From assembly GCA_044450345.1 (NCBI GenBank), contig JBIOIY010000007.1, positions 1-64,000 of the forward strand: 64,000 bases of DNA, given 5' to 3'. The notes below the pieces were generated by a model, which saw only the letters and a list, made by a program, of their open reading frames with translations, had not been told where the DNA came from and ran no database searches. The stretch is from Thermodesulfovibrionales bacterium (GTDB lineage Bacteria; Nitrospirota; Thermodesulfovibrionia; Thermodesulfovibrionales; UBA6898). Positions 1 through 41,057 of the stretch are shown here, piece by piece. The number at the start of each line of letters is the position of its first letter. Position 1 is the first letter of the stretch. Both the position numbers and the translations under genes were made by a program.

Positions 1-201
1 ATCGGAGTAGCCGCCGACAATATAGGTAGTAGCCGCCTGGAGCAGCACCATTATACTGAAGGCCAAACCGAGTTTTTCCACCCCGCCGCTGAGCTTCGCG
101 ACCTGAAGCACATAAAAAGGGCCGATGAATCCCATGACAACTGCCCAGATGGAGCTCACACTCGTGAATATGCGGAGATTCCTTTCATTCGTCGTGATCA
201 A
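1..201 (-). CDS. MFS transporter, N-terminal part (runs off window edge; not in ORF track)
   Basis: Manual translation from TTG at 201 (overlaps rSAM stop): MITTNERNLRIFTSVSSIWAVVMGFIGPFYVLQVAKLSGGVEKLGLAFSIMVLLQAATTYIVGGYSD; two TM helices ending at the start of MFS motif A (GxxSD). Confidence 0.75.
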   Translation of the reverse strand, partial: MITTNERNLRIFTSVSSIWAVVMGFIGPFYVLQVAKLSGGVEKLGLAFSIMVLLQAATTYIVGGYSD

Positions 202-1499
202 TCGCCGGTCTCCGGCATGTATTTTATGTCCTGTCCGACAAGGGTCTCAAGTGTTGCATCCAGATAAGGCTTTTTGCAATCGGTCTCGTGAATGTTTCCG
301 TCTCTCAGGACCTTCATAAACCTGCATCCCCCAAAACAGAGCGGCAGGTATTCGCAGTCAAGGCATTGCCCGTTCTTCCAGACATCAAGAGCATGAGACT
401 CATGAATTTCGAATAAACCTTCTCTGAGGTTTCCTGCAGCAAACCCCTCCCACCCGATAAACCCGGGGCATTTGTAGATCGTCCCGTCATAACTCACCAC
501 AACATCATTCGTCAGCCCTATCATACAAGGGGCGGGAAGGATTTTAGGGGTCTTGAACCCCCGCTTAAGGATCTCCTCCCTAAGAAAAAGGGTGGCCTTG
601 AATATCCAGGGTTCATTAATCGATTCGCTGCCGTCCCTGAATTCCGGAAGTGCAAACCTCCCGCCCGGCTTTACGACAGGATCAAATTTGACGATGAGAA
701 ACTTCTCCGGCGATAGACCCTCTGCGATGAGATAATCAAGGAGTTCGGGAAAACTCGTGTAGTTCTCCTCGGTATAGTTGCCGCCGATCTGGATGCTCAG
801 GATATCATATACCTCTTTAATGTTCTTTACGATCGTTTCGAAGGTCCCGCTCCCGGATTTGAAAGGTCGAAAGGAATTGTGGTTGTCCTTTGGACCATCG
901 AGCGTTATCTTTGCACTCTTCATCCCCAGGGCTGCAAGCTTCTTCGCTCTGGCCCGCGTCAATAGGGTTCCGTTCGTTACAAGATTGAAGGAGTATGTGA
1001 GCCCCCTGCCTTCAGACAATGATTTCAGTCTCTTAGAGACCCTCGTGATATCGTCAAAGCTTAAGAGGGGCTCACCCCCGTAGAAGTCGACATGCACGTC
1101 TTTGCCCTGAGAGAGGGCATGTTTTTCCAGAAAATCTGTCAGAAGCCCCAGGGTCTCCGTGGACATATAGTGCTTCCCCTTCATGTTTCCTTCATAGCAA
1201 TAGGTGCAGCGCAGGTTACAATCGAGGTTCATAACTACAATGGCATTGAATCTTCTCGCGCGTTTGTTGATGTCATCAATAAGACCTTGCATTTCCCTTA
1301 TTTCTTCATCCCTGTCAGAAACTAAAAAACCGAGTTCAGATAGAATCTTCCGATCCGAGGGCTCCAGCTCTCCCTTTTCTATTTGCTCAAGCGCGGTCTT
1401 AGGCAAGAGAATCGTTGATGCCCGCCTGGTGGAATAAAGGACCAGGTAGTCGGGATCATCTTCATAAGTATATGTCTTAATATATCTGGATAATTGCAT
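198..1499 (-). CDS. Radical SAM/SPASM peptide maturase (geopeptide-maturase-like)
   Basis: CNLRCTYC, FYGGEP, VTNGT; SPASM cysteines C-x...-YKC-...CLDCEYLPLCFGGC...C; N-terminal RRE-like region. Start taken at MQLSRY (1499) because the upstream ATG at 1535 lies within a terminator hairpin. Confidence 0.9.
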   Translation of the reverse strand: MQLSRYIKTYTYEDDPDYLVLYSTRRASTILLPKTALEQIEKGELEPSDRKILSELGFLVSDRDEEIREMQGLIDDINKRARRFNAIVVMNLDCNLRCTYCYEGNMKGKHYMSTETLGLLTDFLEKHALSQGKDVHVDFYGGEPLLSFDDITRVSKRLKSLSEGRGLTYSFNLVTNGTLLTRARAKKLAALGMKSAKITLDGPKDNHNSFRPFKSGSGTFETIVKNIKEVYDILSIQIGGNYTEENYTSFPELLDYLIAEGLSPEKFLIVKFDPVVKPGGRFALPEFRDGSESINEPWIFKATLFLREEILKRGFKTPKILPAPCMIGLTNDVVVSYDGTIYKCPGFIGWEGFAAGNLREGLFEIHESHALDVWKNGQCLDCEYLPLCFGGCRFMKVLRDGNIHETDCKKPYLDATLETLVGQDIKYMPETGD

Positions 1500-1507
1500 T
1501 GCCTTTG

Positions 1508-1533
1508 AAAAAAGAGGGGGAGTTATCTCCCCC
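1508..1533 (-). terminator. Intrinsic terminator/attenuator between precursor and maturase
   Basis: GGGGGAG-N4-CTCCCCC stem (1516-1533) followed by TCTTTTTT on the - strand. Confidence 0.7.
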
Positions 1534-1559
1534 ATCGAGTAAATCTTAAACTCAGCTCT

Positions 1560-4619: not shown

Positions 4620-5174
4620 GATGAAAGCGAAATTAATCGGCGCTTTGAGAATAATCGGCCAGAGCTTCGGTACAAAGGTAGTTTCACTTTTGTAGTACGC
4701 TTTGATTTCAGGAAGGGCTTTCTTCTCCTGATGAAATCATAGTCTCAATTGACAGCCTTGCGTGTGCGCAGTATAGGAGGGAGTACACGACAAGGGTCTA
4801 AGCCCTCGTTGCTTTTTTTCGGGAAGTTATATTCTTGAGCTCTTCTTCAGATTGCTCTTGCAGCCACTACTCTTGTTTTGCCCACAGATCTTAGGCTCTG
4901 GATTCGGGAATGAAATACATTAAATGCTAATCACCGTATAGCAAAGAATGTGGAGTCTGACATTGCAGAAAACCCGACCCCTCACTGAAGGAGAATGGGT
5001 TGTTTCCCAATTTTCTATCCCAAAGCGCTCAAATAGCATAAGGACTTGAAAGGGGCGGGATTAACACCGGAACAGCAAAAATGTTGGGGAATCCGCTGGA
5101 ATCCGCTGGAGGAGTGGATAAACATTAATTAAATCGGTAAAATGTATTCCACAGTACGGAGAAAGGAGCTAAAC

Positions 5175-5522
5175 ATGAAACTGTTTACGTTGGAAGAGAG
5201 ACAGTACGAATTGGACAAAGAACTAAACCGTATTGTAGACATTACCATCAAAGAATATCAGCCTGAGAAAATAGTCTTATTCGGCTCAATCGCAGAAGGG
5301 ACAACTCACGAATGGAGCGACATCGACATGCTGATAATAAAGGATACCTCTCTGCGGCCTATTGATAGGTGTCTTGAACTGTTCCGGCTTATTCAGCCCA
5401 AAGTCGGGGTAGATCTCTTCATTTATACTCCTGATGAATTCAAAACCCTCTTGGATGAAAAATACTCATTTCTGCTCAATATTCTGAAAAGAGGCAAGGT
5501 GATGTATGAAAAAGGAGACTGA
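5175..5522 (+). CDS. Minimal nucleotidyltransferase (MNT) antitoxin
   Basis: LFGSIAEG...SDIDMLII motif; SD AAGGAG before ATG 5175. Confidence 0.85.
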   Translation: MKLFTLEERQYELDKELNRIVDITIKEYQPEKIVLFGSIAEGTTHEWSDIDMLIIKDTSLRPIDRCLELFRLIQPKVGVDLFIYTPDEFKTLLDEKYSFLLNILKRGKVMYEKGD

Positions 5523-5895
5523 AGAATGGATAAGAATTGCCATTGAGGACTTCCAGTCTGCCAAATACCTGTTAGAGAAATCCCTTTACAGGATGGTCTG
5601 CTATCATGCCCAGCAGACCGTTGAAAAACTGTCCAAAGCCATCCTCGTGCAGCACGATATAGATATTCCGCGCACACATAACCTTCTTGATCTGAATAAT
5701 GCAATAAAAAAACTTGGATATAATGTCCCTCTTTCTGATGAGGACACAGTCTTTTTGAACAGTATCTACCGATCGCGTTATCCATTTGATGCAGGGCTGC
5801 TCCCCCACGGGGAGCCGACAGAGAAAGATGCTGAAAAGGCATTAGACATCGCGAAACAAATGACAGCCTGGTCCAGGGAGATTTTACAATTTTAG
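5506..5895 (+). CDS. HEPN domain protein (toxin of MNT/HEPN pair)
   Basis: W..IA.ED, CYHAQQ.VEK..KA, THNL, SRYP motifs; overlaps the MNT gene. Confidence 0.85.
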   Translation: MKKETEEWIRIAIEDFQSAKYLLEKSLYRMVCYHAQQTVEKLSKAILVQHDIDIPRTHNLLDLNNAIKKLGYNVPLSDEDTVFLNSIYRSRYPFDAGLLPHGEPTEKDAEKALDIAKQMTAWSREILQF

Positions 5896-11286: not shown

Positions 11287-11315
11287 ACTTAGCTCACAAA
11301 ATTCGAACAATAATG

Positions 11316-11345
11316 GCACGGAGAACCATTTCCCGTGCCCTTTTC
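11316..11345 (+). terminator. Intrinsic terminator
   Basis: GGCACGG...CCGTGCC followed by a T run. Confidence 0.65.
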
Positions 11346-11463
11346 ATTTCCTCGCGTCCTTAAACGAGGTATTCAGGTCTTCAGCGTACTGATCTTCATT
11401 ATGGCTCTTCATGTAACTATAACTTGACGACCCCTCATTAAAATGCCTAAAGGCCATATTTTA

Positions 11464-11478: not shown

Positions 11479-11522
11479 AGATAGCATGCTACCGTAAGTT
11501 TACGGAGGTTATAAAACAAAAG

Positions 11523-11924
11523 ATGAAACGATACAGTTTGAGATGGCTGGTAGTTGTATTAGCGGTTCTTGCCGCGTCCGCCATAGTGGAAGGTACTCAG
11601 CAATATGCCTCAGCTCAAAAGGAGGTCTCCCTCCGGCTGGGTGAAACAAGGTTCACCCTTGATCCGAACATGTTTAGCGACGCGAGGGTGAGGCGGGCAT
11701 ACCAGGTCGCAAAGGAAATCCCCCAGGTACTGGACAGTATCTATTGCTTCTGTCAATGCGAGGAATCGTTCAAACACAAAAGTCTGCTGAGTTGTTACGT
11801 CGACAACCACGCCTCTTCCTGAGATATATGTCTTGGGGAAGCCATTCGAGCTTCCGAGTTGTACAAGAAAGGCTATTCAATAAAGAAAATCAAGGAAACG
11901 GTCGAAAGAGAATATAAACGCTAA
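11523..11924 (+). CDS. PCYCGC/CYCxC-family exported protein with in-frame UGA (probable selenocysteine), 133 aa
   Basis: IYCFCQC...HKSLLSCY..NHASS-TGA(11820-11822)-DICLGEAIRASELYKKGYSIKKIKETVEREYKR*; the read-through tail completes the family HxxxCxxC motif and C-terminal helices. Confidence 0.75.
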
Positions 11925-11954: not shown

Positions 11955-12344
11955 ATGAAAAAGATCACTATAGTTTCGATGGTCCTGCTTCTTATAGCAG
12001 GTATTGCCTATGCTAAGAGCTATGAGGTAACAAAAAAGATTGGCGAGTACACAGTAGTTGCGACGATCGACAAGAACCCGCCCGTGGTCGGCGACAATAA
12101 CATCACAATCGAAGTCAAGGACGCAGCCGGCAAAGCCGTCACAGACGCAAAGGTGAAGGTCGAATATTCAATGCCCGCGATGCCCGGAATGCCGGCAATG
12201 GATTACAAGACTGATGCGGCATTGAAAGGGAACGCTTATCAGGCCAAAATGAACCTTTCTATGGCTGGTGGATGGAATGTGGCCGTAAAGACGATGCGAA
12301 GCGGAAAGGCTGCTACGATAAAGTTCAGCGTAGACGCTCACTAA
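11955..12344 (+). CDS. FixH/YtkA-like periplasmic protein
   Basis: NPPVVGDN, VTDAKVKVEYSMPAMPGMPAM, MAGGWNV motifs. Confidence 0.8.
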   Translation: MKKITIVSMVLLLIAGIAYAKSYEVTKKIGEYTVVATIDKNPPVVGDNNITIEVKDAAGKAVTDAKVKVEYSMPAMPGMPAMDYKTDAALKGNAYQAKMNLSMAGGWNVAVKTMRSGKAATIKFSVDAH

Positions 12345-12345
12345 G

Positions 12346-12942
12346 ATGAGACGAAGGGTTAGCATACCTCGAAGTAAATGGCCGTCGCTTGTTAGTGCTT
12401 TCGCAGTCATCACTTCTGTGCTTCTAATCAGCTCGTTGGGTTATGCCCACGACCTCGTCTGGCCTGGTGAGAAGCTGAGGGCCCTTTTTCCTAAGGCGGA
12501 ATCTTTCGAACAAAAGAACCTCTATGTTTCGGACGAACAAAAGGCCGTCATCGAAAAAGCTCTCGGCGGACGGTTGCCCGCAGAGGACCTTAGGCCTTCA
12601 ATATATTTTGCCGCCGTTAAAGACCGTCCTGAAGCGTCCCCCAAAAAAGCTGCTGCCATAATCTTTATCGACGCTCTGGGTGAGGGCGGAAAGATCGAGA
12701 TGGGCGTTGTGGTCAGCGGCAAGGGCGACATAATGAAGGTGCGGATATTTGAAAATAAGGAATCTCCGAAACTTCTGGACCAATCGTTCCTGAAGCAGTT
12801 CGAGGGCAAGAAGGCATCCGAATCCTTTAAAGTTGGGACCGATATAACCGCTCCCGCTGCAATGGTGAAATCAGCTCAGGCCGTCGCCTCTGGCGCAAGG
12901 AGAGGACTTCTCATAATCAACGAGATGTTCAGGAAGAAATGA
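12346..12942 (+). CDS. FMN-binding-domain-like periplasmic protein (RnfG/NosR type)
   Basis: G.GGKIEMGVVV...G.I..VRI...KE, FLKQFEGK, GTDI; the canonical SGAT motif is not visible. Confidence 0.6.
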   Translation: MRRRVSIPRSKWPSLVSAFAVITSVLLISSLGYAHDLVWPGEKLRALFPKAESFEQKNLYVSDEQKAVIEKALGGRLPAEDLRPSIYFAAVKDRPEASPKKAAAIIFIDALGEGGKIEMGVVVSGKGDIMKVRIFENKESPKLLDQSFLKQFEGKKASESFKVGTDITAPAAMVKSAQAVASGARRGLLIINEMFRKK

Positions 12943-14975
12943 AGAAGATATTTCTGATTCTCACGGTATTTCTCCTTGTAGGGGCCAGGGGGAATTATGC
13001 TTTAGGTATGGAAGGTCATGATCACGCTGCTGCGATCTCCTTCAGAATAGACGGTGCTAATGTAACTTTCAGACTCGACCCCGAAACATATCAAAAGGAA
13101 ACAATTCCCAAAGCAGTCGCATCCTTGACTGACCCTATGTCGGGATCACCCATATATGACGCCGAACTCTATATAAAGCTCGAAAAAGACTTAACCATGA
13201 ATCACACCATGCAGCAAATGAGTTCACCATCCGGAAAGGGGAATGAAAGCAGAGGCCTCGATTTCGGTGAGACGATGGATATGTCGTCCATGACATCCAT
13301 GGTAGACCTTTCCAGTTTCAAAAAGCTTCAACCTGAGCAGATGGCCGGGACGTTTTCGGCCGCGTATCCTCTTCAGGACAAAGGAGACTATACATTCACA
13401 CTCGCCGTAAAGTCCCTTCAGGGGAAGACCTTTGCAGACCCCTTGGTTTACGGCGGCAGGATCTCCTATCAGGAAAAATCCAGGGCTCCTCTCTACAGGA
13501 TGCTCTTTGTAATAGTCGTTATTTTATTGAGCGGACTTCTTGGGGCTGTGATCCTTTATCAAAGGAAGGCTCTCAAGCTTGATCCCGGCCAAAAGTTAAA
13601 TTTGCTCGACATTCCGTGGCTCCGTAGTTTCTTCAAGTCAGCATGGTTCCAGCCGGTATTCCAGATCCCCGTACTCTTAATATTTCTGATCATAATCGCC
13701 GCAGGGTTGTTCGACATACAGCAGGGGGACAGGAATATCGCAACATTGCTGATGTGGACCATATGGTGGGCAGCTATTATATTTACCTTCGTTTTAGTCG
13801 GAAGGATATGGTGCATGATGTGCCCGTTTGGTGCTATACAGGATTGGATTGGGCGACTGATAAGCATGAACAAGGATTTCCCAAAACCCATGAGAAACGT
13901 ATATCTATCGAGCTTCATCTTTTTCGGTCTTACCTGGTGGGACAGCTACAGCGGTATCGTGAACAAGCCGGCTCTTACGGCATATCTCCTGGTCGGTTTC
14001 TTTGTGGTCGCCATAGGGATGGCGGTTGTTTTTAAAGGGAGGGCGTTTTGCAGGTATGTCTGCCCTATCGGGGGGCTCATAGGGATATATGCCATGTTCA
14101 GTCCTATTGAACTCAGGCACAAGTGTCTCGATGTTTGCCGAGGGCATAAGATAAAGGAGTGTATTAAAGGGACCGAAACAAGTCATGGCTGCCCGATGCT
14201 TGTAACGCCCATGACACTTGATAGGAACAACTATTGCAATTTCTGCAGCGAGTGCATTAAATCGTGTTCGCAGGACAATATCGTCATACGGACGAGGAGC
14301 TTTGCAAAAGACCTATGGGTATCTTCAAAGGGATATCTGGACGAGGCGCTCCTTGCAATCGTGCTGGTAGGCATTACGTTAATCGTTACAGGGGTTATGG
14401 TTGAGCCATGGCATGGGTGGATGGACATTGTCGGAAAGATTTTACCCTTCGACACGCTCGGAATAGTTTCACATACCGCAAGGGAAAAGGCGACTTTCCT
14501 GATTGTCTTTACTGTTGGGTCTCTTATAATCGCACCGCTCCTTCTTTTAATTAGCAGTCTGGCGGTCAGGAAGGTTACAGGGCCGGAATCTCCGCTTTCT
14601 CTGAAACGTACATTCGTTCAGTTTGCATATATGTTCATACCGGTGGGGCTGTCCATGCACCTTGCCCATAACATGAACCACCTTTTCAAGGAAGGTCCTG
14701 AAATTGTCCCTGCCGTGGAGAGGTTAATGAATTTTGGCAGCCCGGATTGGTCGGTTATGCCGCTTATGGGACAGGAATCTATATTCTGGCTCCAGATGGG
14801 AATTTTTCTTGTGATGAACATCTTTTCCCTTTACGCGGGGTACAGGATAGCAGTGAAATACTATGGGGACAAGGCCCTGAGGGCGTTCATACCCATGGCG
14901 TGTCTTGCGGTTCTTTTTATGGTCATTAACGCATATATCCTCGGGCAGCCGATGTCGATGAGGCATCACCATTGA
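12939..14975 (+). CDS. Membrane 4Fe-4S binding (polyferredoxin, NosR/FixG-like) protein with Met/His-rich periplasmic N-terminus
   Basis: GRIWCMMCPFG, FCRYVCPIG, CLDVC...EC, GCP, CNFCSECIKSC; many TM helices; C-terminal MSMRHHH. Confidence 0.8.
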   Translation: MKKIFLILTVFLLVGARGNYALGMEGHDHAAAISFRIDGANVTFRLDPETYQKETIPKAVASLTDPMSGSPIYDAELYIKLEKDLTMNHTMQQMSSPSGKGNESRGLDFGETMDMSSMTSMVDLSSFKKLQPEQMAGTFSAAYPLQDKGDYTFTLAVKSLQGKTFADPLVYGGRISYQEKSRAPLYRMLFVIVVILLSGLLGAVILYQRKALKLDPGQKLNLLDIPWLRSFFKSAWFQPVFQIPVLLIFLIIIAAGLFDIQQGDRNIATLLMWTIWWAAIIFTFVLVGRIWCMMCPFGAIQDWIGRLISMNKDFPKPMRNVYLSSFIFFGLTWWDSYSGIVNKPALTAYLLVGFFVVAIGMAVVFKGRAFCRYVCPIGGLIGIYAMFSPIELRHKCLDVCRGHKIKECIKGTETSHGCPMLVTPMTLDRNNYCNFCSECIKSCSQDNIVIRTRSFAKDLWVSSKGYLDEALLAIVLVGITLIVTGVMVEPWHGWMDIVGKILPFDTLGIVSHTAREKATFLIVFTVGSLIIAPLLLLISSLAVRKVTGPESPLSLKRTFVQFAYMFIPVGLSMHLAHNMNHLFKEGPEIVPAVERLMNFGSPDWSVMPLMGQESIFWLQMGIFLVMNIFSLYAGYRIAVKYYGDKALRAFIPMACLAVLFMVINAYILGQPMSMRHHH

Positions 14976-14985: not shown

Positions 14986-15825
14986 ATGATTGCACGAGTC
15001 TTTGCCGGCATAATCTTCATCGTCCTTGGGGTTGCAGCGACAGCTGGGGCGGACCTCGATCTTGACAAAGAGGTACTCGTCATCCCTGATACTCATAACG
15101 AGAAACCCTATATATGGAATGTTGTGAGAAACCCCCGTGGGTATGAGCTTGTAATGGAATATGGCGGCCCGGCCACAGGACTAAATGATCAGTTTTCGTT
15201 TGAGGTGAAAAGGGAATCATCCGCTAAAATGGATGATATGCAAGTCTTCATCACTGACGAAGACCTTCATACCTTTGCCCACGTCAGGCCTGTAATTAGC
15301 GGTGCCGGCAAGTATTCATTCAATTTCGCTGCGCCCGATGCTGGCAAATATCGTTTCGAGATGGTCTTCAGGACAGATGCGAGTTGGGTAAATCTTCGGC
15401 AGGACATAAGGTTGAAAAAAGCCGCAGGTAAGGTGGAACCCGCTTTGAAGCCCGGTGATGAGGACTACGATGTTAAGGTAAAGCTTTATCCCAAGAAGAT
15501 CTATGCGGATCACGTCGGTACCTTTCTTTACGAGATAAGCTACAAGGGTAAGCCTCTAAAGGATATCGAAAAGATAGACGGCTCCGACATGCAGGTTGCT
15601 GCGTGGGATGAGGACCTTAAAGAATTTATTCATATGACGCCCAAGCAGAACCTCGGTGGTCCCGATGTTGCCGTCAGCGTCGTGTTTACGAGGCCGGGCA
15701 AACATGCTGTCTTTGCGGAGTTTAGACATAATGGTATAACGAGGAGGGTCGATTTCGTCGTCAATGTCTACAGGGAGCCGAGCCAGGACAAAGGATCTCT
15801 TCCCTATCTCGGACCCTCGGAGTGA
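14986..15825 (+). CDS. Exported protein with two YtkA-like heavy-metal-associated domains
   Basis: Repeated DEDL..F.H..P and F..PG[K]Y/H..F.EF motifs. Confidence 0.65.
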   Translation: MIARVFAGIIFIVLGVAATAGADLDLDKEVLVIPDTHNEKPYIWNVVRNPRGYELVMEYGGPATGLNDQFSFEVKRESSAKMDDMQVFITDEDLHTFAHVRPVISGAGKYSFNFAAPDAGKYRFEMVFRTDASWVNLRQDIRLKKAAGKVEPALKPGDEDYDVKVKLYPKKIYADHVGTFLYEISYKGKPLKDIEKIDGSDMQVAAWDEDLKEFIHMTPKQNLGGPDVAVSVVFTRPGKHAVFAEFRHNGITRRVDFVVNVYREPSQDKGSLPYLGPSE

Positions 15826-19726: not shown

Positions 19727-20020
19727 GAGTAGACGACGCGTGAATGATGAACGAACTATTCATTAAGCGTTGTCCACTGCCGTCTTCAAAAAGAAAAACC
19801 TTGAAAGCAAAGCACCGGACGAGCGAATGCGCGCCCGCAATATTTCTTTATTTGAGAAAGCGCTTGCAGTTGCACTCTGCTGTGATAGACTGATAGCAAT
19901 AGCAGAACTTGCTTAATCCTTTCGGAATTCTTGCTGCGGGGCTCCGCAACACCTTTTCTTGCACTTTCTGCGAATACGCTGAAACTGTCCGCGATAATTG
20001 AAGTGATGCTTATGAGAACG

Positions 20021-21502
20021 ATGCTCAATAGATATCGCAGCGCGGCAGCGTTCATTTTTCTGTTTGTAGGCGCCTCTACCCTTTGTTCGAAAGCTGAAGC
20101 TTTCGGGGATGGTTATATTGGAGCTGAAAAATGTGCCGTTTGCCACAGGGGAGAATATGATGGCTGGCAGAAATCCGGCCATGCCCTCATCCTTCGCAAG
20201 CCGATAGATTCAACAGCCAGTGGAATTCCCCTTCCTTCAGGTTTCGGGCGGAATGATATTTCATATGTAATCGGCGGACACAGATGGAAGGCGCTTTTCG
20301 TTGATAAAAACGGATATCTGATAACCTCCAACATCTCCGGCAAAGGAAAAAATCAATATAACCTAAAAAGTAGGAAGTGGGCAGATTATCTTCCTGGTCA
20401 AAAGACTCCGTATGACTGCGGCGGCTGTCACACGACAGGCTATTCGCCTGATGGTCATCAGAATGGGCTCGAAGGCATTGTAGGCACGTGGCAGCTTGAG
20501 GGAGTTCAGTGCGAGGGATGTCATGGGCCGGGCTCCGCCCACGCGGAATCGACGAAAAAATCGGACATTAAGATCATCAAAGCTGTTTGTGCCGGGTGTC
20601 ATGGGATAAAACCATTCGATTCAATCCGACTGAAGGGTGTCTTCATCGAACCATACACGGAAGCAAATCAGCTTTCGAAGAGCGGGATGAAAAATCTTTC
20701 GTGCACCGATTGCCACAATCCTCATCTCGATGCTGGAAAGTCCATAAAGCAAAGCTGCGAATCATGCCACCGGAAAGCCTCTGAGAGATATCGGGGAAGC
20801 TATATGTTTCAAAAGGGTGTTGTTTGCACGGATTGTCACATGCCTCCCGCTGGCATAGTCGCCACAGGGGATCCAAAGCTATTTCGCGGAGATCTGAAAA
20901 GCCATATCTTCGTGATCGACCATCGCAAGGACTTTCCGTCCATGACCGTAAACGGGGAGACTGTGAATCCAGGGTACTTGAGTGTCGATTACGCCTGCAC
21001 GCCCTGTCACAACATTTTCGAAAACAGACAGTGGGCTGTCAGTTTCGGGGCTGTATCGCACAGGATAAAGATAACTACAAACATCAAAATTATGCGTCTT
21101 CAGTTGTCACTGGCCCTGCTCGGCTTTCTTTCTTCCCTTGTGGCCCTCGGTTCCGCCCTCTCCCTCAAGCAATGGATTCTTCCTTCTCTCAACAAAAAAA
21201 GAATGCTTAGCATCCATAAGCATGCGGCCTGGATCACTTTTGCGCTCTACGTCTTCATTTCCATTATGTGCATCTACTTCCATTTCCCGCTTAACGCTCC
21301 CCAAAAGGCCCTCGCGATGGGCTGGTTTTTGATTCATCCGATAAACGGAGCGCTCGGGGTCATAATCTATAGTGGAAAGATCGTAGCAGTCAGAAAATTC
21401 AAAAAGGGTTGGGCTACGCCGGGTCTCACTTGGGGGATAGGACTTTCGGTGTTCTGGCTTTTACAGTACGCTACAGCCGTATTTTCCTATTTTGGGAGGT
21501 GA
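20021..21502 (+). CDS. Octaheme c-type cytochrome with C-terminal ~4-TM domain
   Basis: Eight CxxCH: CAVCH, CGGCH, CEGCH, CAGCH, CTDCH, CESCH, CTDCH, CTPCH; hydrophobic C-terminus with His residues. Start uncertain (20012/20021). Confidence 0.85.
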   Translation: MLNRYRSAAAFIFLFVGASTLCSKAEAFGDGYIGAEKCAVCHRGEYDGWQKSGHALILRKPIDSTASGIPLPSGFGRNDISYVIGGHRWKALFVDKNGYLITSNISGKGKNQYNLKSRKWADYLPGQKTPYDCGGCHTTGYSPDGHQNGLEGIVGTWQLEGVQCEGCHGPGSAHAESTKKSDIKIIKAVCAGCHGIKPFDSIRLKGVFIEPYTEANQLSKSGMKNLSCTDCHNPHLDAGKSIKQSCESCHRKASERYRGSYMFQKGVVCTDCHMPPAGIVATGDPKLFRGDLKSHIFVIDHRKDFPSMTVNGETVNPGYLSVDYACTPCHNIFENRQWAVSFGAVSHRIKITTNIKIMRLQLSLALLGFLSSLVALGSALSLKQWILPSLNKKRMLSIHKHAAWITFALYVFISIMCIYFHFPLNAPQKALAMGWFLIHPINGALGVIIYSGKIVAVRKFKKGWATPGLTWGIGLSVFWLLQYATAVFSYFGR

Positions 21503-23454: not shown

Positions 23455-25695
23455 TTGAAAGAAAAAGAAGTCACCTACACCTGCCCGATGCATCCTGAGA
23501 TAAGGCAGCCGGGGCCTGGCACCTGTCCAAAATGCGGCATGGCACTGGAGCCGGTGCAACCGTCAATTCCGGCCGTCAAGACAGAATGGACCTGTCCGAT
23601 GCATCCTGAAATTGTCCGCGACGCTCCGGGCAGTTGTCCTATCTGCGGCATGGCGCTGGAACCTAAAATGATCACTGCCGGAGAAGAGGAAAACCCCGAA
23701 CTGCTCGATATGACGCGGCGGTTCAAGGTAAGCGTCATACTAACGATCCCCTTGGTCTTAATTGCCATGCGCCACTATATTCCGGGTCTCTCAATAATCG
23801 ACCGCGTTATTCCCACCGGCGTCATGAAATGGATGGAATTGGTTCTTGCCACACCTGTGGTACTTTGGGGGGCATGGCCGTTCTTTGTCAGGGGTTGGCG
23901 GTCGGTCGTCACCTGGAATCCGAACATGTTTACCCTCATCGGGCTGGGCGTCGGCGTCGCATACGTTTACAGTCTTGTCGCGGCGCTTTTCCCCGGGCTC
24001 TTCCCGGCGTCGTTTCGTGGTGAAAGCGGTGAAGTGGGCATGTATTTCGAGGCTGCTGCTGTTATCGTTACGCTTGTGCTGGTCGGCCAAGTGATGGAAT
24101 TGAGGGCGAGGACACGGACCGGCGCAGCGATTAAGGCCCTTCTCGGCCTTGCGCCAAAAACAGCCCGCCGCATACGGAACGGAAATGAAGAGGATGTTCC
24201 CCTTGAGCAGATCCAGGCGGGTGATCTTCTCCGTGTAAGACCGGGCGAAAAGATCCCGGTTGACGGCGCGGTCACTGAAGGATCAAGCAGCGTAGATGAA
24301 TCAATGATTTCCGGTGAGTCGATCCCGGTGATGAAGCAGTCGGGGGACAGTGTCATCGGCGCAACAGTGAATGGTACCGGTACAATGATAATGAAGGCAG
24401 AAAAGGTCGGGGCCGAAACACTTCTGGCGCAGATAGTAAATATGGTGGCTGAAGCCCAGCGTAGCCGTGCGCCGATCCAGAAGCTTGCCGACACCGTGGC
24501 GGGATATTTTGTCCAGATCGTCGTCAGTATCGCTGTTATTACATTTGTCGCATGGGCCTGGCTGGGGCCTGAGCCCCGTATGGCCTATGCCCTTGTCAAC
24601 GCAGTTGCAGTGCTGATCATCGCCTGCCCATGTGCGCTTGGTCTGGCAACTCCTATGTCGATCATGGTTGCGATGGGCAAGGGGGCAACAGGCGGCGTGC
24701 TTTTTAAGAACGCAGAGGCTATCGAGGTGATGAAGACCGTCGATACCCTTGTTACGGATAAAACCGGCACGCTCACCGAAGGAAAGCCGAAACTGGTGAG
24801 CGTGGTCCCCGCAGCCGGAGTCGATGAGAAGACGCTTCTTCATTTTGCCGCGAGCATCGAGATGGGAAGCGAGCACCCCCTTGCAGCAGCGATCGTCGCC
24901 GGAGCAAAAGAAAAGGATATCTCACCTTCAAAGGTTGATTCCTTTGAATCGCTCACCGGACGCGGGGTAACGGGTCTGATTGACGGAAGAAAGGTCGCCC
25001 TTGGAAACCGGAAGCTTATTGAAGAGCTCGGCATAGCGCCGGGAGAACTTCCGGACAAGGCAGAGTCCATGCGCACGGAGGGACAGACAGTCATGTTTGT
25101 TGCCTTAGACGGAAAGGCTGCGGGGCTCCTTGGTGTGGCAGACCCGATCAAGGCGACGACAGCCGAGGCGATAGAGAAACTTCATCAGGAAGGGATAAGA
25201 GTCGTTATGCTCACGGGAGACAACAAGACCACTGCCGAGGCTGTCGGAAAGAAACTCGGCATCGATGAGGTGATCGCCGAGGTCCTGCCGGACCAGAAAG
25301 CAGAGATGGTCAAACGATTGCAGGGGGAGGGAAAAATTGTGGCAATGGCAGGAGATGGCATCAATGACGCGCCGGCCCTAGCACAGGCACACGTCGGTGT
25401 AGCAATGGGGACCGGGACGGACGTGGCGATGCAGAGCGCTGGGGTGACCCTGGTGAAAGGCGATCTTCGCGGGATCGTACGGGCGAGAAGGTTAAGCAGA
25501 GCTACGATGCGCAATATTAAACAAAACCTCTTCTGGGCCTTTGCTTACAACGCTCTTGGTGTTCCTATCGCGGCAGGCGTACTTTATCCCTTTGTGGGCA
25601 TCCTCCTCAGCCCCATATTTGCAGCTGCGGCAATGAGCTTCAGTTCGGTTTCCGTGGTGGGAAACGCGTTGAGGCTGAGAAGGGTTAAGCTGTAA
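23455..25695 (+). CDS. copA: Copper-translocating P1B-type ATPase
   Basis: Two [YW]TCPMHP metal-binding domains, [22 protein letters not shown] and MSFSS Cu(I) signatures. Confidence 0.95.
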
Positions 25696-25713
25696 TCGTT
25701 CGTTTGACGGCAC

Positions 25714-26775
25714 TCACTTCTTCTTCAAGTTCAATATATACTGCCTCGCGGCGAGGGCCGCCTTGGCCCCCTCTCCCGAAGCGATAACGATCCTTTTGCC
25801 GAAAGCATTGGTGACATCGCCCGCGGCGAATACTCCGGGACAAGAGGTAGAGCAGTCGGAATCGATAACTATTTCACCACGCTCGTTCAGTTCTACGAGA
25901 TCGGTAACAAGAGACGCGTTGGGCTGAAGGCCGATTGCGATGAATATTCCCTTTACCGGCAGTTTGACTGTTTCTTCTTCCGCCAACTTTCTTATGGAGA
26001 TTTCAGAGACCGCGTCTTCGCCTGAAAATGCGACTACCTTGAATCCCTCGTACTTCACGAGATTCTCAAACTGAGAGACTCTTTCGACTATCGACGCGTC
26101 TGCGTTAAGCTTTGAATCGGAAATGAGAGAAATGCTCTTTGTAACGATATGAAGGTTTTCGACGATCTGCATCGCCGAATTTCCGCCTCCGATCACAGCC
26201 ACATCAGCTCCCTGAACAAAAGAGAGGTCTTGAATGTTCCCGTAAAAAACGCCTTTTCTCTGGAGCCGCTCCTCGCCTTCCACGTGCAGCTTTCTTCTTG
26301 TCATTCCCGTCGCCAGAATGACTGTTATAGCGAAATAGGAGTTGAGATCGGATGTTACTACATTGAATCCTCCATGAACCGGCTCGATTTTCTCCACGTC
26401 GCTGAGAAGATGGTCTATATAATGAGAGTGGATCAGCTGATATTGGAACTTCTCCACAAGTTCGGGGCCGGTTATGAAATCAAACCCCATATAATTCTCT
26501 ATCTTTGTACTATCGACTGCCTGGCCACCGAGGTCTTTGGCAATGAGAAAGGCCTCCATCTTCAGTGTCGCTGCATATACCGCCGCTGTCAGACCCGCAG
26601 GCCCGCCGCCGATGACAATGAGGTCATACGAAGTGCGGGGAAGCTTGCAGGACCTTTCCTTAATAAATTTGTCCCTGCATCCTTCAGAGCAAAAATAATA
26701 GCGTTCTCCGTCACAATCCGCCGTTACGGCTGTCTTTTCGTCAACCACCATATGGCATACAGGGTCTTTCTTCAT
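25714..26775 (-). CDS. YHS/TRASH domain fused to thioredoxin-reductase-like FAD oxidoreductase lacking CxxC
   Basis: DPVCHM...YYFCSEGC; GGGPAG, ATG, GGGNSA, FAAGD; GVFYGNIQD where GVSYCATCD is expected. Confidence 0.85.
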   Translation of the reverse strand: MKKDPVCHMVVDEKTAVTADCDGERYYFCSEGCRDKFIKERSCKLPRTSYDLIVIGGGPAGLTAAVYAATLKMEAFLIAKDLGGQAVDSTKIENYMGFDFITGPELVEKFQYQLIHSHYIDHLLSDVEKIEPVHGGFNVVTSDLNSYFAITVILATGMTRRKLHVEGEERLQRKGVFYGNIQDLSFVQGADVAVIGGGNSAMQIVENLHIVTKSISLISDSKLNADASIVERVSQFENLVKYEGFKVVAFSGEDAVSEISIRKLAEEETVKLPVKGIFIAIGLQPNASLVTDLVELNERGEIVIDSDCSTSCPGVFAAGDVTNAFGKRIVIASGEGAKAALAARQYILNLKKK

Positions 26776-27065
26776 TTTGAAATCCTCATATTCGAGTAAG
26801 TCTTAGCCGCAGGAAATCTTCAGCCTATCTCCGTGACTTCCTTATCTCAGTTATATCATGAAAAATAAGGCAAGTCTTTACTATTTCGGCGATTATCCTA
26901 TTCTTTGTATCTTTGTTTTTGGCCAAAACTCTTGTCTGGAAAAATGGATAAAAAAACAGAGCACAAGCCAGTGATTGAATCAATAATGGAAGAATGATCG
27001 GAAGCGGGCCCGCAGATAGCGACTGAATTGAATGCAGGAGTTAAACAGTAAGGCGAAGAATACTT

Positions 27066-27803
27066 TTATCCGCTGTCTTGAGCTTTGCCGGCGATAATTA
27101 TTGTTGGTATGCTAAAGCCTGGATAATTTTGATCTACGTTTCCTATTCCGAGACCGAGAATTCTGTTGCTTGAGAAAATCTGAAGTGTATCAAAGAAATC
27201 ATCATGGCCATAGGGAGCAAAATCATAATCCGCGAGTATCATGAACGGTAATTTTCTTTCGCTCATCATGTCCGGAATATGAGTATGAGTTATGCAGAGA
27301 AACTGTAAACCTTCAAGGCCGCATCCGGTGACAGAATTAAAATAAGTACGGACCTGAGACACCGTCATTCTCTGAAATCTTTCCCCCGTCTGAATTTTTC
27401 CAAAATAGAAACCTTGTGGCCTTGGAGGAGCTCCTGGTCGCAGCCGGAAATAATCAGGTTTATCAAAATTAATATGCGGACTCTGCCACACTTTATTTTT
27501 TAATCGCTTAAGAGCACAATCCCAGGCGATCTTCCCGGAGAGAACAGAATCTGCGTGGCCTGAGCCGTCGTCACCTACGCCGTAAAAAAGGGCAACGCCA
27601 ACAAACCCTTGCTCCAAATCACTGTTAGTCAACGAAGGAGGTGCACCAATCCCGTTAAATTCTTTTTCGCCGATATGCCATTTCATTTCTTTGTTAGCGC
27701 CGCGCCAGGCCTTGATCTGCTCTTCTATGGGAAGCATCACACGATCTGTAAATTCAGATTTCTTCGGAAAAAATAAACGACTCAGCCATTTAACAGGCGT
27801 CAC
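27066..27803 (-). CDS. Hypothetical protein
   Basis: 245-aa ORF, SD-like GGGATGG; no motif recognised. Confidence 0.55.
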   Translation of the reverse strand: MTPVKWLSRLFFPKKSEFTDRVMLPIEEQIKAWRGANKEMKWHIGEKEFNGIGAPPSLTNSDLEQGFVGVALFYGVGDDGSGHADSVLSGKIAWDCALKRLKNKVWQSPHINFDKPDYFRLRPGAPPRPQGFYFGKIQTGERFQRMTVSQVRTYFNSVTGCGLEGLQFLCITHTHIPDMMSERKLPFMILADYDFAPYGHDDFFDTLQIFSSNRILGLGIGNVDQNYPGFSIPTIIIAGKAQDSG

Positions 27804-28167
27804 AATTCCATCCCTTTACAGCATCAATTATAGGATATGACATAGCCACAGCACCTTCAACAGTTCGTTAGAGAGACTTTTTACTGACTCAGTAATTCCT
27901 CATAGAAAAACTTTATCACGCTACAGCGGCCACATCAATTTATCATGAAAGATTGCTGAGGGTAATAATGATTGAAGAACGCATTTAAAGCCAAGCGGTG
28001 CAATGGAACAAAAAAATACGATAGAAAAGTTGCGAGTAGGGAGATTGTCTGAGATAGTCTTATACATATAAGAATTCTTGAAAGGAGGTGCCTATACAAA
28101 TATCACGGAAGAAAGGTATGACCTGCAATGGCAATAAATGATGTCGAATAAAAGGAGGAGTTCAGAG

Positions 28168-28314
28168 ATGAAAAAGACATTATTCATTATTTCCGCGTGT
28201 TTGTTGCTTTTTGCATTATCAGGTTGCGGTCTTGCCCAGATGGGCGGTGGCATGATGGGTGGTCAACAGGGTCAGATAATGGCGCCCAGCCAAGGTGAAA
28301 GATATTGTCGATAA
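28168..28314 (+). pseudogene. Short exported Met/Gly-rich ORF (48 aa), probably truncated (not in ORF track)
   Basis: SD AGGAGGAG; MKKTLFIISACLLLFALSGCGLAQMGGGMMGGQQGQIMAPSQGERYCR*. Confidence 0.55.
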
Positions 28315-28430
28315 GAAAACGCTCGATATGTTGAATGTGTTGCGATATAATTTGACAGAAATCAGACGGGCTCATGGTAATTCCCATCGTGGATCCATAC
28401 AAACCGCCTGAAGTACTCGGAGGTCTGATT

Positions 28431-28769
28431 ATGAAAATGGTCACAGCGGTAGTTAGGTCGGTTGGGCTTGAGCGGATAGTCAAGGCACTCGAAGATGAGG
28501 GGATTATGGGTCTGACCTTCTTCGAGGTGAAAGGAACCGGGGAGCAGGTCAATGTATTCAGACAATATTCCATACACAAGAAGATCGAGGTTATCGTCCC
28601 GGACGAGAGGGCAGAAGGAGTAGCCAGGATAATTTTTGAGCAGGGACATACGGGATTTGCAGGGGATGGGCTCATAGCAATACTCCCCGTCGAGTGCGTA
28701 ATAAAGATAAAAAAGAAGGCAATGATGTGCGATCTTGATTTCAAAGGAATGAAGGAGGTAAACCTCTAA
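28431..28769 (+). CDS. P-II family protein with shortened T-loop
   Basis: MKMVTAVVR, G.T..EVKG.G, KIEVIV.D, HTG..GDG.I.ILPVE; SD GGAGG. Confidence 0.85.
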   Translation: MKMVTAVVRSVGLERIVKALEDEGIMGLTFFEVKGTGEQVNVFRQYSIHKKIEVIVPDERAEGVARIIFEQGHTGFAGDGLIAILPVECVIKIKKKAMMCDLDFKGMKEVNL

Positions 28770-28817
28770 GCTTTGTTGGAAAGGAATTTGAATCATAACG
28801 CTAAAGGGAGAGAGAAG

Positions 28818-29204
28818 ATGGTAAAGAAAATCGTATTTTTCACTTTTTTTATACTGCTGACAGCCGGCCTTGTCTACGCCAAAGAGTATAACGTTGTCAA
28901 GAAGGCCGGACCATATCAGGTGACGCTCAAGATGGACAAAGATCCGGCCGCGGTCGGCGAGAATAATGCCATTATTGAGGTAAAGAATCCAGCCGGAGAG
29001 TCCGTGACTCACGCTGGCGTGGAGGTCTCATATTTAATGCCCTCAATGCAGTCGATGAAGTATGTTGAAAAGGGCGAACCAGCGGGAAATGTTTATACCG
29101 CTACCATCAAACCGTCGATGCCCGGTAAATGGAGAGCGACAGTGACGATCAAGGAGGAGAGGGGAAAGTCGCACAAGGTAAGTTTTGATTTCGAGGCCAA
29201 GTGA
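28818..29204 (+). CDS. FixH/YtkA-like periplasmic protein
   Basis: Similar to 11955-12344 (DPAAVGEN, YLMPSM, SMPGKW). Confidence 0.8.
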   Translation: MVKKIVFFTFFILLTAGLVYAKEYNVVKKAGPYQVTLKMDKDPAAVGENNAIIEVKNPAGESVTHAGVEVSYLMPSMQSMKYVEKGEPAGNVYTATIKPSMPGKWRATVTIKEERGKSHKVSFDFEAK

Positions 29205-29253
29205 AAATAAGAATGAGGGCTTTTAAAATTTGGACAAGGCAAGACGGCTTGAG

Positions 29254-30525
29254 ATGAAATCGTCAACAGCCTTATCCCTCATCATGATGCTGCTGTTCGT
29301 CACTACAGGCTCTGCCGAGGCCGCCCAGGTCCCTGTCGCCAGTCTCGATGCCCTTATCGATGAGGCGTTGCGCAACAACTCTGAGCTAAAGGCAACGGAA
29401 GACAAAGTAGACGTGTTCAGCGAAAGGCCTTCCCAGGAGGAATCTTTGGAAAATCCGAGGCTGGGATTCGGTATTCTCAATCTGCCAGTGAATTCATTCA
29501 GCTTTGACCAGGAGCCGATGACGCAAAAACAAGTCTCCGTCCTGCAAAGGATTCCTTTCCCGGGGAAACTTCCCTTGAAAGGCGCGATCGCAAGGAAGGA
29601 CGTCGACATCGCAAAGGAGGAGGTTGCGGAAAAACGGAACAATGTGATCCTGCAGGTCAAGATAGTTTACCGGAATCTCCTTTTGGTTGACAAGACGATA
29701 ACGGTAACAAAAGAGAACAGGGATCTCTTGAGGGATTTTGTCAAAACGGCGGAAGCGAAGTATTCGGTCGGCATGGGAATCCAACAGGATGTGCTGAAAG
29801 CACGGGTGGAGCTGTCGAAAATGATAGACATGCTTATATCGCTGGAGGAGAAAAAAGAAAGCCTCCTTGCGCGACTGAATTCGCTCCTTTATCGCCGTTC
29901 AGGCGAAAGGCTGAAGGACATAACTTGGCAAGACCTGGACTCGCTGAAGCCGACACCGTTTCCGTATACGGTGGAGGAACTGGAAAACATGGCGATGGAA
30001 AACCGCCCGATGCTCGCCTCAGCAAAACAGAGGATAGAGAGGTCCCGGCTGGGCGTGATGCTGGCAAAGAGGAATTACTATCCCGATTTCGATGTGGCGG
30101 TCAGTTATGGCCAGCGCGACAAAATGCCCGATTTTGTCTCCGGTTCGGTCATGATCACGATACCTCTTTGGTACAAGACGAAAGAGAACAGAAAGCTGGC
30201 GGAGGAGCGGGCAAGGACGAGGCAGGTCGAGGAGGAGTATAATTCCCTGAAAAATGATATCTTCTTCCGGCTGCGGGATTCAGTTCTGGAAATAAACAAA
30301 TATAAAGACCAGTTGGATCTGTACAAGACTGGCCTGATACCGCAGGGGAGAGCCGCCCTCGAATCGGCAATGGCCGGATACGGAGTGAATAAGGTGGATT
30401 TCGTAACGCTGGTAAACAACCAGATTACTTTGTATAACTACCGGATAGAGTATTACAAGGTTCTTACCGGTTTTGAAAACACCATCTCTGATATCGAAGC
30501 GGCAATAGGTAAAAGATTTTATTAG
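29254..30525 (+). CDS. TolC-family outer membrane factor (CusC-like)
   Basis: LIDEALRNN, EPMTQ..V.V.Q.IPFPGKL, ITIPLW, upstream of CusB/CusA. Confidence 0.88.
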   Translation: MKSSTALSLIMMLLFVTTGSAEAAQVPVASLDALIDEALRNNSELKATEDKVDVFSERPSQEESLENPRLGFGILNLPVNSFSFDQEPMTQKQVSVLQRIPFPGKLPLKGAIARKDVDIAKEEVAEKRNNVILQVKIVYRNLLLVDKTITVTKENRDLLRDFVKTAEAKYSVGMGIQQDVLKARVELSKMIDMLISLEEKKESLLARLNSLLYRRSGERLKDITWQDLDSLKPTPFPYTVEELENMAMENRPMLASAKQRIERSRLGVMLAKRNYYPDFDVAVSYGQRDKMPDFVSGSVMITIPLWYKTKENRKLAEERARTRQVEEEYNSLKNDIFFRLRDSVLEINKYKDQLDLYKTGLIPQGRAALESAMAGYGVNKVDFVTLVNNQITLYNYRIEYYKVLTGFENTISDIEAAIGKRFY

Positions 30526-30604
30526 CGCTATAAACAGGAGGAAAGCCGAGATCCATTTATGAAAGAAAAGAAATTGTCCGAAAAACCGAAAAGTTATACC
30601 TTAA

Positions 30605-36799: not shown

Positions 36800-37231
36800 A
36801 TGATTACGAACAAGGCAAAAGATATTTTCAGAAACTATATTAGAGAGAAGGGACTGCGCAATACCCGGCAAAGAGAAGAAATTCTTAATGCTTTCCTCTC
36901 TTCAGAGAAACATATTACCGTCGAAGACCTATTTAATGCGATAAAGGTGAAAGATCCCGAAATAGGTTACGCCACAGTCCACCGAAATTTGAGCTTGTTG
37001 TGTGAATGCGGTCTTGCTGATGAAATAAAGATCGGCAAACAAAAGACCAGATACGAACCTAAATTCGGGCAGGAGCATCATGATCATCTTATCTGTTTAA
37101 AATGCGGCCGGTTCATCGAGGTCAATGACACAAAGATCGAAAAACTCCAGGATAAGCTCGCTGAAGCAAACGATTTTATTCCAGTGAGGCACAAGCTGGA
37201 GATATACGGCATCTGCAAACAGTGTAAGTAA
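36800..37231 (+). CDS. fur: Fur family transcriptional repressor
   Basis: GLRNTRQR..IL, H.T.EDL, IGYATVHR, HHDHLICLKCG, HKLEIYGICKQC. Confidence 0.93.
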   Translation: MITNKAKDIFRNYIREKGLRNTRQREEILNAFLSSEKHITVEDLFNAIKVKDPEIGYATVHRNLSLLCECGLADEIKIGKQKTRYEPKFGQEHHDHLICLKCGRFIEVNDTKIEKLQDKLAEANDFIPVRHKLEIYGICKQCK

Positions 37232-37250
37232 TTTTTTTTGCTCTCTTCAT

Positions 37251-37269
37251 GATATTGCATATCATTATA
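37251..37269 (+). promoter_or_regulatory. Second Fur box
   Basis: GATATTGCATATCATTATA, 14/19 match to GATAATGATAATCATTATC. Confidence 0.65.
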
Positions 37270-37322
37270 AACAAAGACGGGTGGTAGCCTTTAGAAAATG
37301 GAATCACGAAAGGAGAAGATAG

Positions 37323-38087: not shown

Positions 38088-38098
38088 GAGGTTGTGAT

Positions 38099-40823: not shown

Positions 40824-40824
40824 T

Positions 40825-40974: not shown

Positions 40975-41057
40975 GAGTAATACCCATGTTCTTTAATGTC
41001 ATGATAAGGTGATTTTTGGAATAAAGGGGCTGTCAGATAAAAGTGCTACAATAAAAA

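Follow-up and report, generated by a model that had tools for sequence, protein, structure and literature searches.

A probable selenocysteine codon in a CYCXC-family gene beside copper-related genes of a Thermodesulfovibrionales bacterium

A short gene on the forward strand of contig JBIOIY010000007.1 (assembly GCA_044450345.1), from a Thermodesulfovibrionales bacterium of the Nitrospirota, raises the question of whether its single in-frame TGA ends translation or encodes selenocysteine (Sec, U). The stretch analysed covers positions 1 to 64,000 of the contig and is referred to below as the window. The gene opens with ATG at 11523, carries its sole in-frame TGA at 11820-11822 as codon 100 and closes with a TAA stop at 11922-11924; 33 open codons (DICLGEAIRASELYKKGYSIKKIKETVEREYKR) lie between the TGA and the TAA, and the next gene begins with ATG 11955, 30 bp past 11924. 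A preliminary description of the locus had reported this codon, the 33 open codons, the 30-bp gap and the peptide HASS-U-DIC-LGEA across the codon, all of which the sequence and its translation bore out, and had proposed an exported selenoprotein heading a copper-linked redox operon. Read through, the coding sequence (11523..11924, + strand) specifies a CYCXC-family selenoprotein of 133 residues with U at residue 100, as assigned from the sequence, its translation and the family models NF041379 and PF13798. The TGA at 11820-11822 is almost certainly the selenocysteine codon of this small, exported, Cys-rich protein. The best explanation of the locus as a whole, in which SelB and tRNA-Sec would decode the codon of an exported CYCXC protein that has a redox U100/C103 pair and a copper-linked role, is on the sequence evidence very probable.

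Codon alternation and translation beyond the TGA

We scanned for relatives with one genome per species and obtained 83 related stretches, of which 80 loci were kept. With the window these gave 81 orthologous sites, where the codon was TGA in 66 (65 loci and the window), NGA in one, TGC in nine and TGT in five. TGA thus alternates with TGY (14 sites) at an invariant Cys column, which is the pattern that the preliminary description had named as a check of its proposal. The TGA forms came nearly all from Nitrospirota/Thermodesulfovibrionia metagenome-assembled genomes (MAGs), with three others (L067, L075 and L078), and the TGY forms were labelled Deltaproteobacteria or Thermodesulfobacteriota. 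In a phylogenetic tree of the loci, from which three rows were omitted (L056, with N at the site; L062, at a contig end; and L063, with a stop in the upstream 60 codons), a Nitrospirota clade of 61 rows was recovered with support 98/93, and all 61 rows were of the Sec form. The window lay inside this clade as sister to L001, a Nitrospirota MAG (support 99/89). Independent origins of Sec were considered for L075 and L078, which stand among the Cys forms, and were not accepted, as the tree is also compatible with one change (support 68/79, 72% of bootstrap trees). One locus labelled Chloroflexota (L010, JBLMXV010000036.1) is a typical Sec form of the Nitrospirota clade, nested in that clade and with YtkA and CusCBA genes downstream; its placement may reflect a binning error or a transfer.

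Predicted proteins gave a complementary view of the same site. A search of 5.8 billion predicted proteins returned 251 matches, and the tails were inspected in the 120 that were listed. Every one of these 120 stopped three residues past a conserved His, directly before the TGA site, with query coverage of at most 74%, and the 28 of them that were aligned all ended in one column. The opposite situation, in which the TGA would be unique to this strain and all close homologs would carry Cys, therefore did not hold. A wider sample drew on 1.84 billion proteins and took the best 150 among 1170 cluster representatives. Cys was found at the site by a strict pattern in 106 of these and nine proteins were cut at the site; the strict pattern missed another 34, most of which showed H-x3-C-x2-C by eye. 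At least two of these 150 representatives had W at the Sec position, one found by pattern and one (P0171) by eye; evidently some gene-calling pipeline translated these Nitrospirota-type contigs with TGA as Trp.

These truncated predictions agree with the view that the TGA is a true stop, the gene then giving a 99-residue protein without the last helix pair or being a pseudogene decaying in this strain, since gene callers ended all listed relatives at the codon. The sequence beyond the codon argues otherwise. In 65 Sec-form sequences (L056, with its N, and L062, at the contig end, being left aside), the entropies at codon positions 1, 2 and 3 were 0.51, 0.47 and 1.30 over the 30 codons before the TGA and 0.56, 0.43 and 1.30 over codons +12 to +32 past it, with the third-position value falling to 0.83 in the codons of the hairpin described below. 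The coding signature past the TGA therefore equals the signature before it, which bears out the conserved downstream sequence that the preliminary description had named in the same check. No stop occurred within 31 codons past the TGA in any of the 65 sequences, and the frame there was exactly 33 codons long in 56 of them (range 32 to 45). Truncation at the TGA would cost the product column 100, which is invariant, and C103, which is nearly so, and the window protein has kept all the near-invariant residues past the codon (C103, A107, A110, G117 and I123). Because the TGA is retained with an intact frame of 32 to 45 codons in 65 other species-level genomes, 66 in all with the window, a true stop or a pseudogene is very unlikely.

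The W residues would also suit a host-wide reassignment of UGA to sense. Fourteen of the 65 Sec-form genes, however, themselves terminate at TGA, from which it follows that UGA is still a stop in these organisms, and the extensions obtained in the window by reading TGA as sense were covered by no family model. An error of sequencing or assembly at a TGY codon would have to be shared, as the TGA is common to 66 independent assemblies. Reassignment and error together are so improbable as to be negligible.

A hairpin past the codon and the decoding of UGA

Bacterial selenocysteine insertion sequence (SECIS) elements had been expected just 3' of the UGA, and a SECIS-like hairpin with the loop AUUC was found at 11837..11855 (+ strand) by folding and by comparison with Sec-form orthologs. 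In the window it consists of six pairs between 11837-11842 and 11850-11855, which are the arms of the inverted repeat GGAAGC/GCTTCC already pointed out in the preliminary description and confirmed in the sequence, plus a C11843-G11848 pair with A11849 bulged. Across the Sec forms the helix has 8 bp, pairing +17 to +24 with +28 to +35 (numbered from the U of UGA), with the consensus GGGAGGCCC-UGC-GGGCCUUC, and it begins 14 nt past the UGA at the same position in 65 distinct Sec-form orthologs. Over these 65 sequences, standard pairs filled 96.7% of the cells of the helix, compared with 65.4% and 66.3% when the 3' side was slid by one column, and changes on both sides of a pair occurred in 15 cells, a count reached by none of 500 shuffles. 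At the pair +20/+32 the combinations were GC in 27, GU in 21 and AU in 14, and A-C never occurred; both positions are synonymous third positions, of a Glu and an Ala codon. An alternation between Ser and Phe at +33..+35 (UCC/UUC) likewise preserved a G-C or G-U pair with +18. The longer stem that had been suggested, reaching from 11832 to 11858, was rejected as not well conserved, its three added pairs being standard in 42, 64 and 45 of the 65 sequences.

The hairpin follows the codon. We compared the predicted stability of the segment from +15 to +38 in 67 Sec forms (-9.1 to -17.3 kcal/mol, median -14.4) and in 14 Cys forms (-0.9 to -8.9 kcal/mol, median -4.95), and every Sec-form segment was more stable than every Cys-form segment, with no overlap. 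A hairpin with compensatory changes is thus present just 3' of the UGA in Sec forms and missing from Cys forms. Two of the Sec forms outside the main group, L075 and L078, share a different 7-bp helix (GAGGCGC/GCGUCUC) with a 5-nt loop at the same place, shifted by one register. This variant helix (L075:2791-2838 and L078:6316-6363) hints at a second conversion from Cys to Sec, and the tree is compatible with a single origin. We also observed that RNAfold often pairs UGAGAC with GUCUC(G), in the window (11820-11835) and at many other loci, into a small hairpin that contains the UGA itself; this may be a by-product of the U-D-I-C-L codons.

In two respects the element resembles the SECIS of the E. 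coli fdhF type: it is a hairpin within the coding sequence, beginning 14 nt past the UGA and placing its apical loop about 22 nt downstream, and its conservation is confined to sites with a TGA codon. Unlike that type, the CYCXC element has no matching curated covariance model and a 3-nt loop (UGC, UGA or UUC). The window's own putative element departs further, with a loop of 4 to 7 nt that lacks the 5' G. Rules of the bSECISearch type ask for a G among the first two positions of the apical loop. Loops in the relatives were mostly UGC or UGA, and a G stood at loop position 1 or 2 in 51 of 66 distinct relatives; the other 15 (UUC, UUA) did without, so the rule is not general in the CYCXC family.

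Several observations speak against selenocysteine decoding in this particular strain. Folded by itself, the window hairpin is unremarkable (-12.7 kcal/mol for 11820-11880, z = -0.48 relative to shuffles), and its significance therefore comes only from the comparison with orthologs. Its value of -9.1 kcal/mol for the segment compared above is the weakest among the 67 Sec forms; two apical pairs are lost where the window has ATT (Ile) and not CTG/CTT (Leu), and CGA and not CGG. The loop of the window hairpin, AUUC or, with the apical C-G pair open, CAUUCGA, has no G in the first two positions, a caveat that the preliminary description had rightly raised. Searches with Rfam, which holds no usable model for bacterial SECIS elements, gave no match at gathering scores across the window, with two chance matches only (E ~7) around the TGA site. 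The absence of sel genes, noted from the start, was likewise borne out: neither selA, selB, selC nor selD was found in the 64-kb window by tRNA search, Rfam or Pfam/NCBIfam scans. A second selenoprotein was also sought there, and among 20 open reading frames (ORFs) read through TGA no family match crossed the TGA. The weakest hairpin of the set and the lack of sel genes in the window would equally suit a true stop, the probability of which is set above by the 66 intact frames. The weak hairpin may mean lower read-through in this strain, or it may mean that a larger loop is tolerated.

Machinery for decoding was looked for outside the window as well. No tRNA-Sec was present in the 80 loci, where the only tRNAs were those for Gln, Met and Cys (GCA anticodon); selB and selC have been reported in a groundwater Nitrospirae lineage (PMC8124441). 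Another way of reading the same codon keeps the SECIS/SelB route and has a SelC*-type tRNA-Cys (anticodon UCA) insert Cys at the UGA, in full or in part, in which case residue 100 would depend on selenium supply. According to PMC5389517, Thermodesulfovibrio and contigs of probable Nitrospirae origin contain selC* tRNA-Cys genes, and selC* tRNAs inserted Cys in E. coli; Cys, moreover, works at the site in 14 of the 81 orthologs and, in the wider family, in most members. The same paper nevertheless describes complete Sec machinery in selC*-carrying genomes, beside incomplete systems in others, and where the machinery is complete Cys insertion by SelC* would supplement Sec insertion and not replace it. 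No tRNA of any kind lay in the window, none that was informative lay in the 80 loci, and both the NF041379 curation and a 2026 review treat the TGA forms as Sec. Insertion of Cys by SelC* is accordingly quite improbable here, if less so than a stop. Under the selenocysteine reading, the TGA would be decoded by the bacterial SelB/tRNA-Sec route, the mRNA hairpin at 11837-11855, 14 nt past the codon, would recruit SelB, and the ribosome would read 33 further codons to TAA 11922, giving a pre-protein of 133 residues.

The family, its conserved residues and its predicted structure

The preliminary description had mentioned a family name, "CYCXC (seleno)protein", and the name exists: the read-through product passed the NCBIfam model NF041379, "CYCXC family (seleno)protein" (OS_HP4_CYCXC), with 129.4 bits against an equivalog cut-off of 90, model positions 2-90 of 90 falling on residues 43-132. 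It also matched Pfam PF13798 (PCYCGC) with 47 bits (gathering threshold 25), as did all 106 aligned relatives. A 2026 review (PMC13188914) already lists the CYCXC family, named there with its C[YF]CxC motif, as a UxxC selenoprotein and gives credit for the family to Zhang and Gladyshev 2007; in the main text of that 2007 paper (PMC1976440) OS_HP1-3 alone were found, and a first description of OS_HP4 was not confirmed there. The window protein is a plain member of the NF041379 family, with no structural difference. Its selenoprotein recoding is therefore an ordinary case, already catalogued by NCBI curation and in the literature, and the finding is less novel than was first implied. New are the extent of the Sec clade in Nitrospirota, the description of the SECIS hairpin and the two recurrent gene contexts presented below. 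As to function, a Parageobacillus CYCXC member is given as of "unknown function" in PMC13068155, and the papers found describe no function for the family.

In an alignment of the 106 homologs, with U written as C, the invariant columns were C75, C77, C79, C91 and position 100, and H85, H96 and C103 were conserved in at least 90%. The first three Cys make up C75-F-C77-Q-C79 (11745..11759, + strand), the C[YF]CxC motif from which the family takes its name. Position 100 opens U100-D-I-C103 (11820..11831, + strand), the UxxC motif with TGA 11820-11822 as its Sec codon, as identified from codon alternation, the alignment and the family model.

The suggestion that the protein is exported fits what inspection of its N-terminus found. 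Residues 1-31 (11523..11615, + strand) form a predicted signal peptide of the Sec export type, with a K/R n-region, the hydrophobic stretch LVVVLAVLAASAIV and A-S-A|Q at its end, and relatives have A-x-A|QK at the cleavage place. A lipobox, L-[AST]-S-C, was present in six of nine Cys-form sequences inspected, and a Bacillales CYCXC member is described as a predicted lipoprotein in PMC13068155. Taken together, the signal features, the lipoboxes of relatives and the Bacillales lipoprotein indicate, by inspection, that the family is extracytoplasmic.

AlphaFold, run with the 106 sequences, modelled an all-helical domain with a mean pLDDT of 89.5, exceeding 95 from residue ~40, preceded by a single helix of lower pLDDT at residues 4-32. 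The helix 101-115 begins directly after U100. The N-terminal end of a helix is the usual geometry for a redox-active CxxC pair, and U100-x-x-C103 is on this ground taken as a selenol/thiol redox centre. Structural comparison has so far lent no support to a redox or copper-handling function: Foldseek against the Protein Data Bank (PDB) gave 68 matches at E <= 10, none of them at E <= 0.001 (best E 2.4), a profile search of PDB sequences gave no match for the CYCXC protein, and a search of the ESM Atlas with a natural Cys-form relative as query gave no usable match. The third Foldseek match was the N-terminal domain of E. coli CcmH (2kw0; E = 4.3, probability 0.21, target-normalised TM-score 0.53), to which we return below.

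Gene neighbourhoods and possible roles

In the window, four genes follow the CYCXC gene on the same strand, with gaps of 30, 1, -4 and 10 bp. The first (11955..12344, + strand) encodes a YtkA-like exported protein (PF13115, 1.2e-20; PDB 9ll2, "Copper resistance protein", 1.4e-13); the YtkA domain has been implicated in putting together the CuA site in B. subtilis, according to PMC13344008. It is followed by a weakly FMN_bind/RnfG-like protein (12346..12942, + strand), which scored 21.2 bits with PF04205, under the cut-off of 22, and matched RnfG chains at E = 0.016. The third product (12939..14975, + strand) is a membrane polyferredoxin of 678 residues and NapH/MauN type, with two Fer4_5 stretches (1.2e-14); its start and the previous stop share 4 bp, its NapH/MauN score of 31 bits is far under the cut-off, and no PDB relative was found for it. 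The last gene of the putative operon (14986..15825, + strand) encodes a weakly YtkA-like protein of 279 residues (PF13115 E = 0.0084, under the cut-off). Upstream, sequence reading points to a possible Shine-Dalgarno element, GGAGG, at 11504..11508 (+ strand), 14 nt before the ATG, and to an inverted repeat, GGCACGG (11315-11321) and CCGTGCC (11333-11339) followed by CTTTTCATTT, at 11315..11349 (+ strand). The consensus scan did not list this repeat, whose 11-nt loop exceeds the limit of the scan. It is a possible terminator of the upstream gene, in which case the gene at 11523 would open a transcription unit.

Farther downstream, positions 23455-35892 hold a copper island composed of a copper P-type ATPase of CopA type with two HMBD repeats (23455-25695; TIGR01511 609.8, cut-off 397), a YHS-domain thioredoxin-reductase-like flavoprotein on the opposite strand (25714-26775), a third YtkA-like gene (28773-29204) and CusC/CusB/CusA-type efflux genes (29230-35892). 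The proposed copper-linked redox operon thus draws its support from gene context, namely the YtkA-like, FMN_bind-like/polyferredoxin, CopA-type ATPase and CusCBA genes.

We sought homologs of these neighbours by tblastn with the window proteins across the 80 loci. A YtkA-like homolog occurred at 39 loci, mostly close downstream of the CYCXC gene, and homologs of CusC, CusB, CusA, the NapH-like protein and the P-type ATPase occurred at 36, 30, 27, 16 and 11, respectively; the homolog of 14986..15825 was found together with FMN_bind-like and NapH-like genes at 14 loci. The CYCXC Sec gene is thus recurrently linked to copper export and chaperone genes. Cys forms had a second kind of surroundings. 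In 10 of 14 Cys-form loci the gene stood directly before genes for a TPR protein (with a CcmH/CycH-type TPR match) and ResB; of these 10, CcsA came next in nine, two thioredoxin-like genes and CcdA were present in eight, and rnf genes lay just upstream in nine. These surroundings are a cluster for System II cytochrome c biogenesis and thiol reduction. At L064 (575-11263), for example, the Cys-form CYCXC gene lies between rnfCDGEAB and a series of genes for TPR protein, ResB, CcsA, two thioredoxins and CcdA, a fixed supercluster that we also observed at L066, L068, L069, L071-L074 and L076. Five Sec loci without copper genes (L008, L043, L057, L058 and L061) had a thioredoxin-like gene directly downstream, and L075, also of the Sec form, had CcdA there. 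Flavin-domain membrane redox modules (RnfG, the FMN_bind-like protein) were repeatedly near CYCXC genes. The common denominator of both contexts is periplasmic Cys/metal chemistry that needs reducing power.

Other features of the window were recorded in passing. Metal-handling genes are abundant across it, among them Fur, FeoA, FeoB and a cation-diffusion facilitator (36800-41732, + strand), and a multihaem c-type cytochrome with MtrC/DmsE-like motifs lies at 19931-21502 (+ strand). A radical SAM/SPASM enzyme at 198-1535 (- strand) matched the "geopeptide radical SAM maturase" model TIGR04280 (612 bits, cut-off 400), and a small precursor peptide gene may lie nearby. A nucleotidyltransferase/HEPN pair at 5142-5895 (+ strand), in which an MntA-like antitoxin accompanies a HEPN toxin, resembles a type VII toxin-antitoxin module. 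A prokaryotic ubiquitin-like set (ThiF-type E1, DUF2016/JAB, E2 family D and Prok_Ub) occupies 52078-55680 (- strand), with an IS605 OrfB/TnpB gene (56598-57791), a DnaG-type primase, a PLD-like protein, an ERCC4 nuclease and an HTH repressor close by, and the region from 43 to 58 kb looks like a mobile or defence island.

The Cys-form loci give weight to another role, in which the protein would serve apocytochromes or cuproproteins of the periplasm as a thiol reductant instead of binding copper; it would then be a helical CxxC protein of the CcmH-like sort, supplied by CcdA and thioredoxin-like proteins. Besides the 10 of 14 Cys-form genes that directly precede the TPR protein and ResB, most with CcsA, thioredoxin-like and CcdA genes, the five Sec loci with a thioredoxin-like gene, L075 with its CcdA, and the TM-score of the 2kw0 match favour this role. 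CYCXC proteins and the CcmH N-terminal domain are both small, exported, all-helical and non-thioredoxin, with a CxxC-type pair, and the Cys-form genes adjoin a CcmH/CycH-type TPR protein and cytochrome c biogenesis genes; unlike CcmH, CYCXC proteins bear four more invariant or near-invariant Cys and two His. The 2kw0 match, however, is not significant, and the window and the 39 of 80 loci with a YtkA-like gene have copper partners and no adjacent cytochrome c biogenesis genes. Homology to CcmH was rejected at the sequence level, as the CcmH Pfam models matched none of the 106 family members at E up to 5. A thiol-reductant role is thus possible, if doubtful.

For the window and the Sec forms linked to copper genes, we outline a periplasmic copper-defence role in which copper would be captured or reduced by U100/C103 together with the CxCxC/His cluster, then handed to a YtkA-type protein and from there to CusCBA, while a NosR/RnfG-like flavin-polyferredoxin pair would recharge the selenoprotein with electrons carried across the membrane; in this full form the scheme is tentative and rather unlikely. 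The signal peptide would probably send the protein to the periplasm, where its mature part (about residues 36-133) would form a compact all-helical domain holding the Cys/Sec positions C75, C77, C79, C91, U100 and C103 along with H85 and H96. The U100/C103 centre could keep the neighbouring Cys/His metal site reduced, or could itself bind Cu(I). Its partner would be the YtkA-like copper protein, whose gene starts 30 bp downstream; electrons would plausibly reach the periplasm through the membrane pair of FMN-domain protein and polyferredoxin, and the whole set would form part of a copper-tolerance island with the CopA-type ATPase and CusCBA. TlpA reduces Sco, and copper delivery by YtkA/CtaK and Sco/TlpA offers a parallel: the CYCXC gene adjoins YtkA-domain genes, or elsewhere thioredoxin-like and CcdA genes, and in all these systems Cys ligands outside the cytoplasm must stay reduced. 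Unlike Sco and TlpA, to neither of which it is homologous, the CYCXC protein has a putative copper link, through its gene neighbours. Two further points count against the copper-linked role, in that the copper and cytochrome c biogenesis contexts point to different substrates and that gene neighbourhood is the single source of the functional proposal.

If the copper-defence role is true, the CYCXC protein would act in a copper-tolerance pathway that depends on selenium and is fixed throughout the sampled Nitrospirota clade of 61 rows, and would provide the first function for PF13798. Selenium supply would then be tied to metal resistance in subsurface Nitrospirota, and the Sec codon might take Cys through a SelC*-type tRNA when selenium is limited. 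Because all 120 of the nearest proteins listed are cut at the UGA, the family is systematically mis-annotated in Nitrospirota genomes, at the cost of the invariant U/C-x-x-C centre, which is missing from the predicted proteins. For PF13798 the two contexts provide two functional leads, copper export with YtkA for the Sec forms and rnf, System II and CcdA/thioredoxin genes for the Cys forms.

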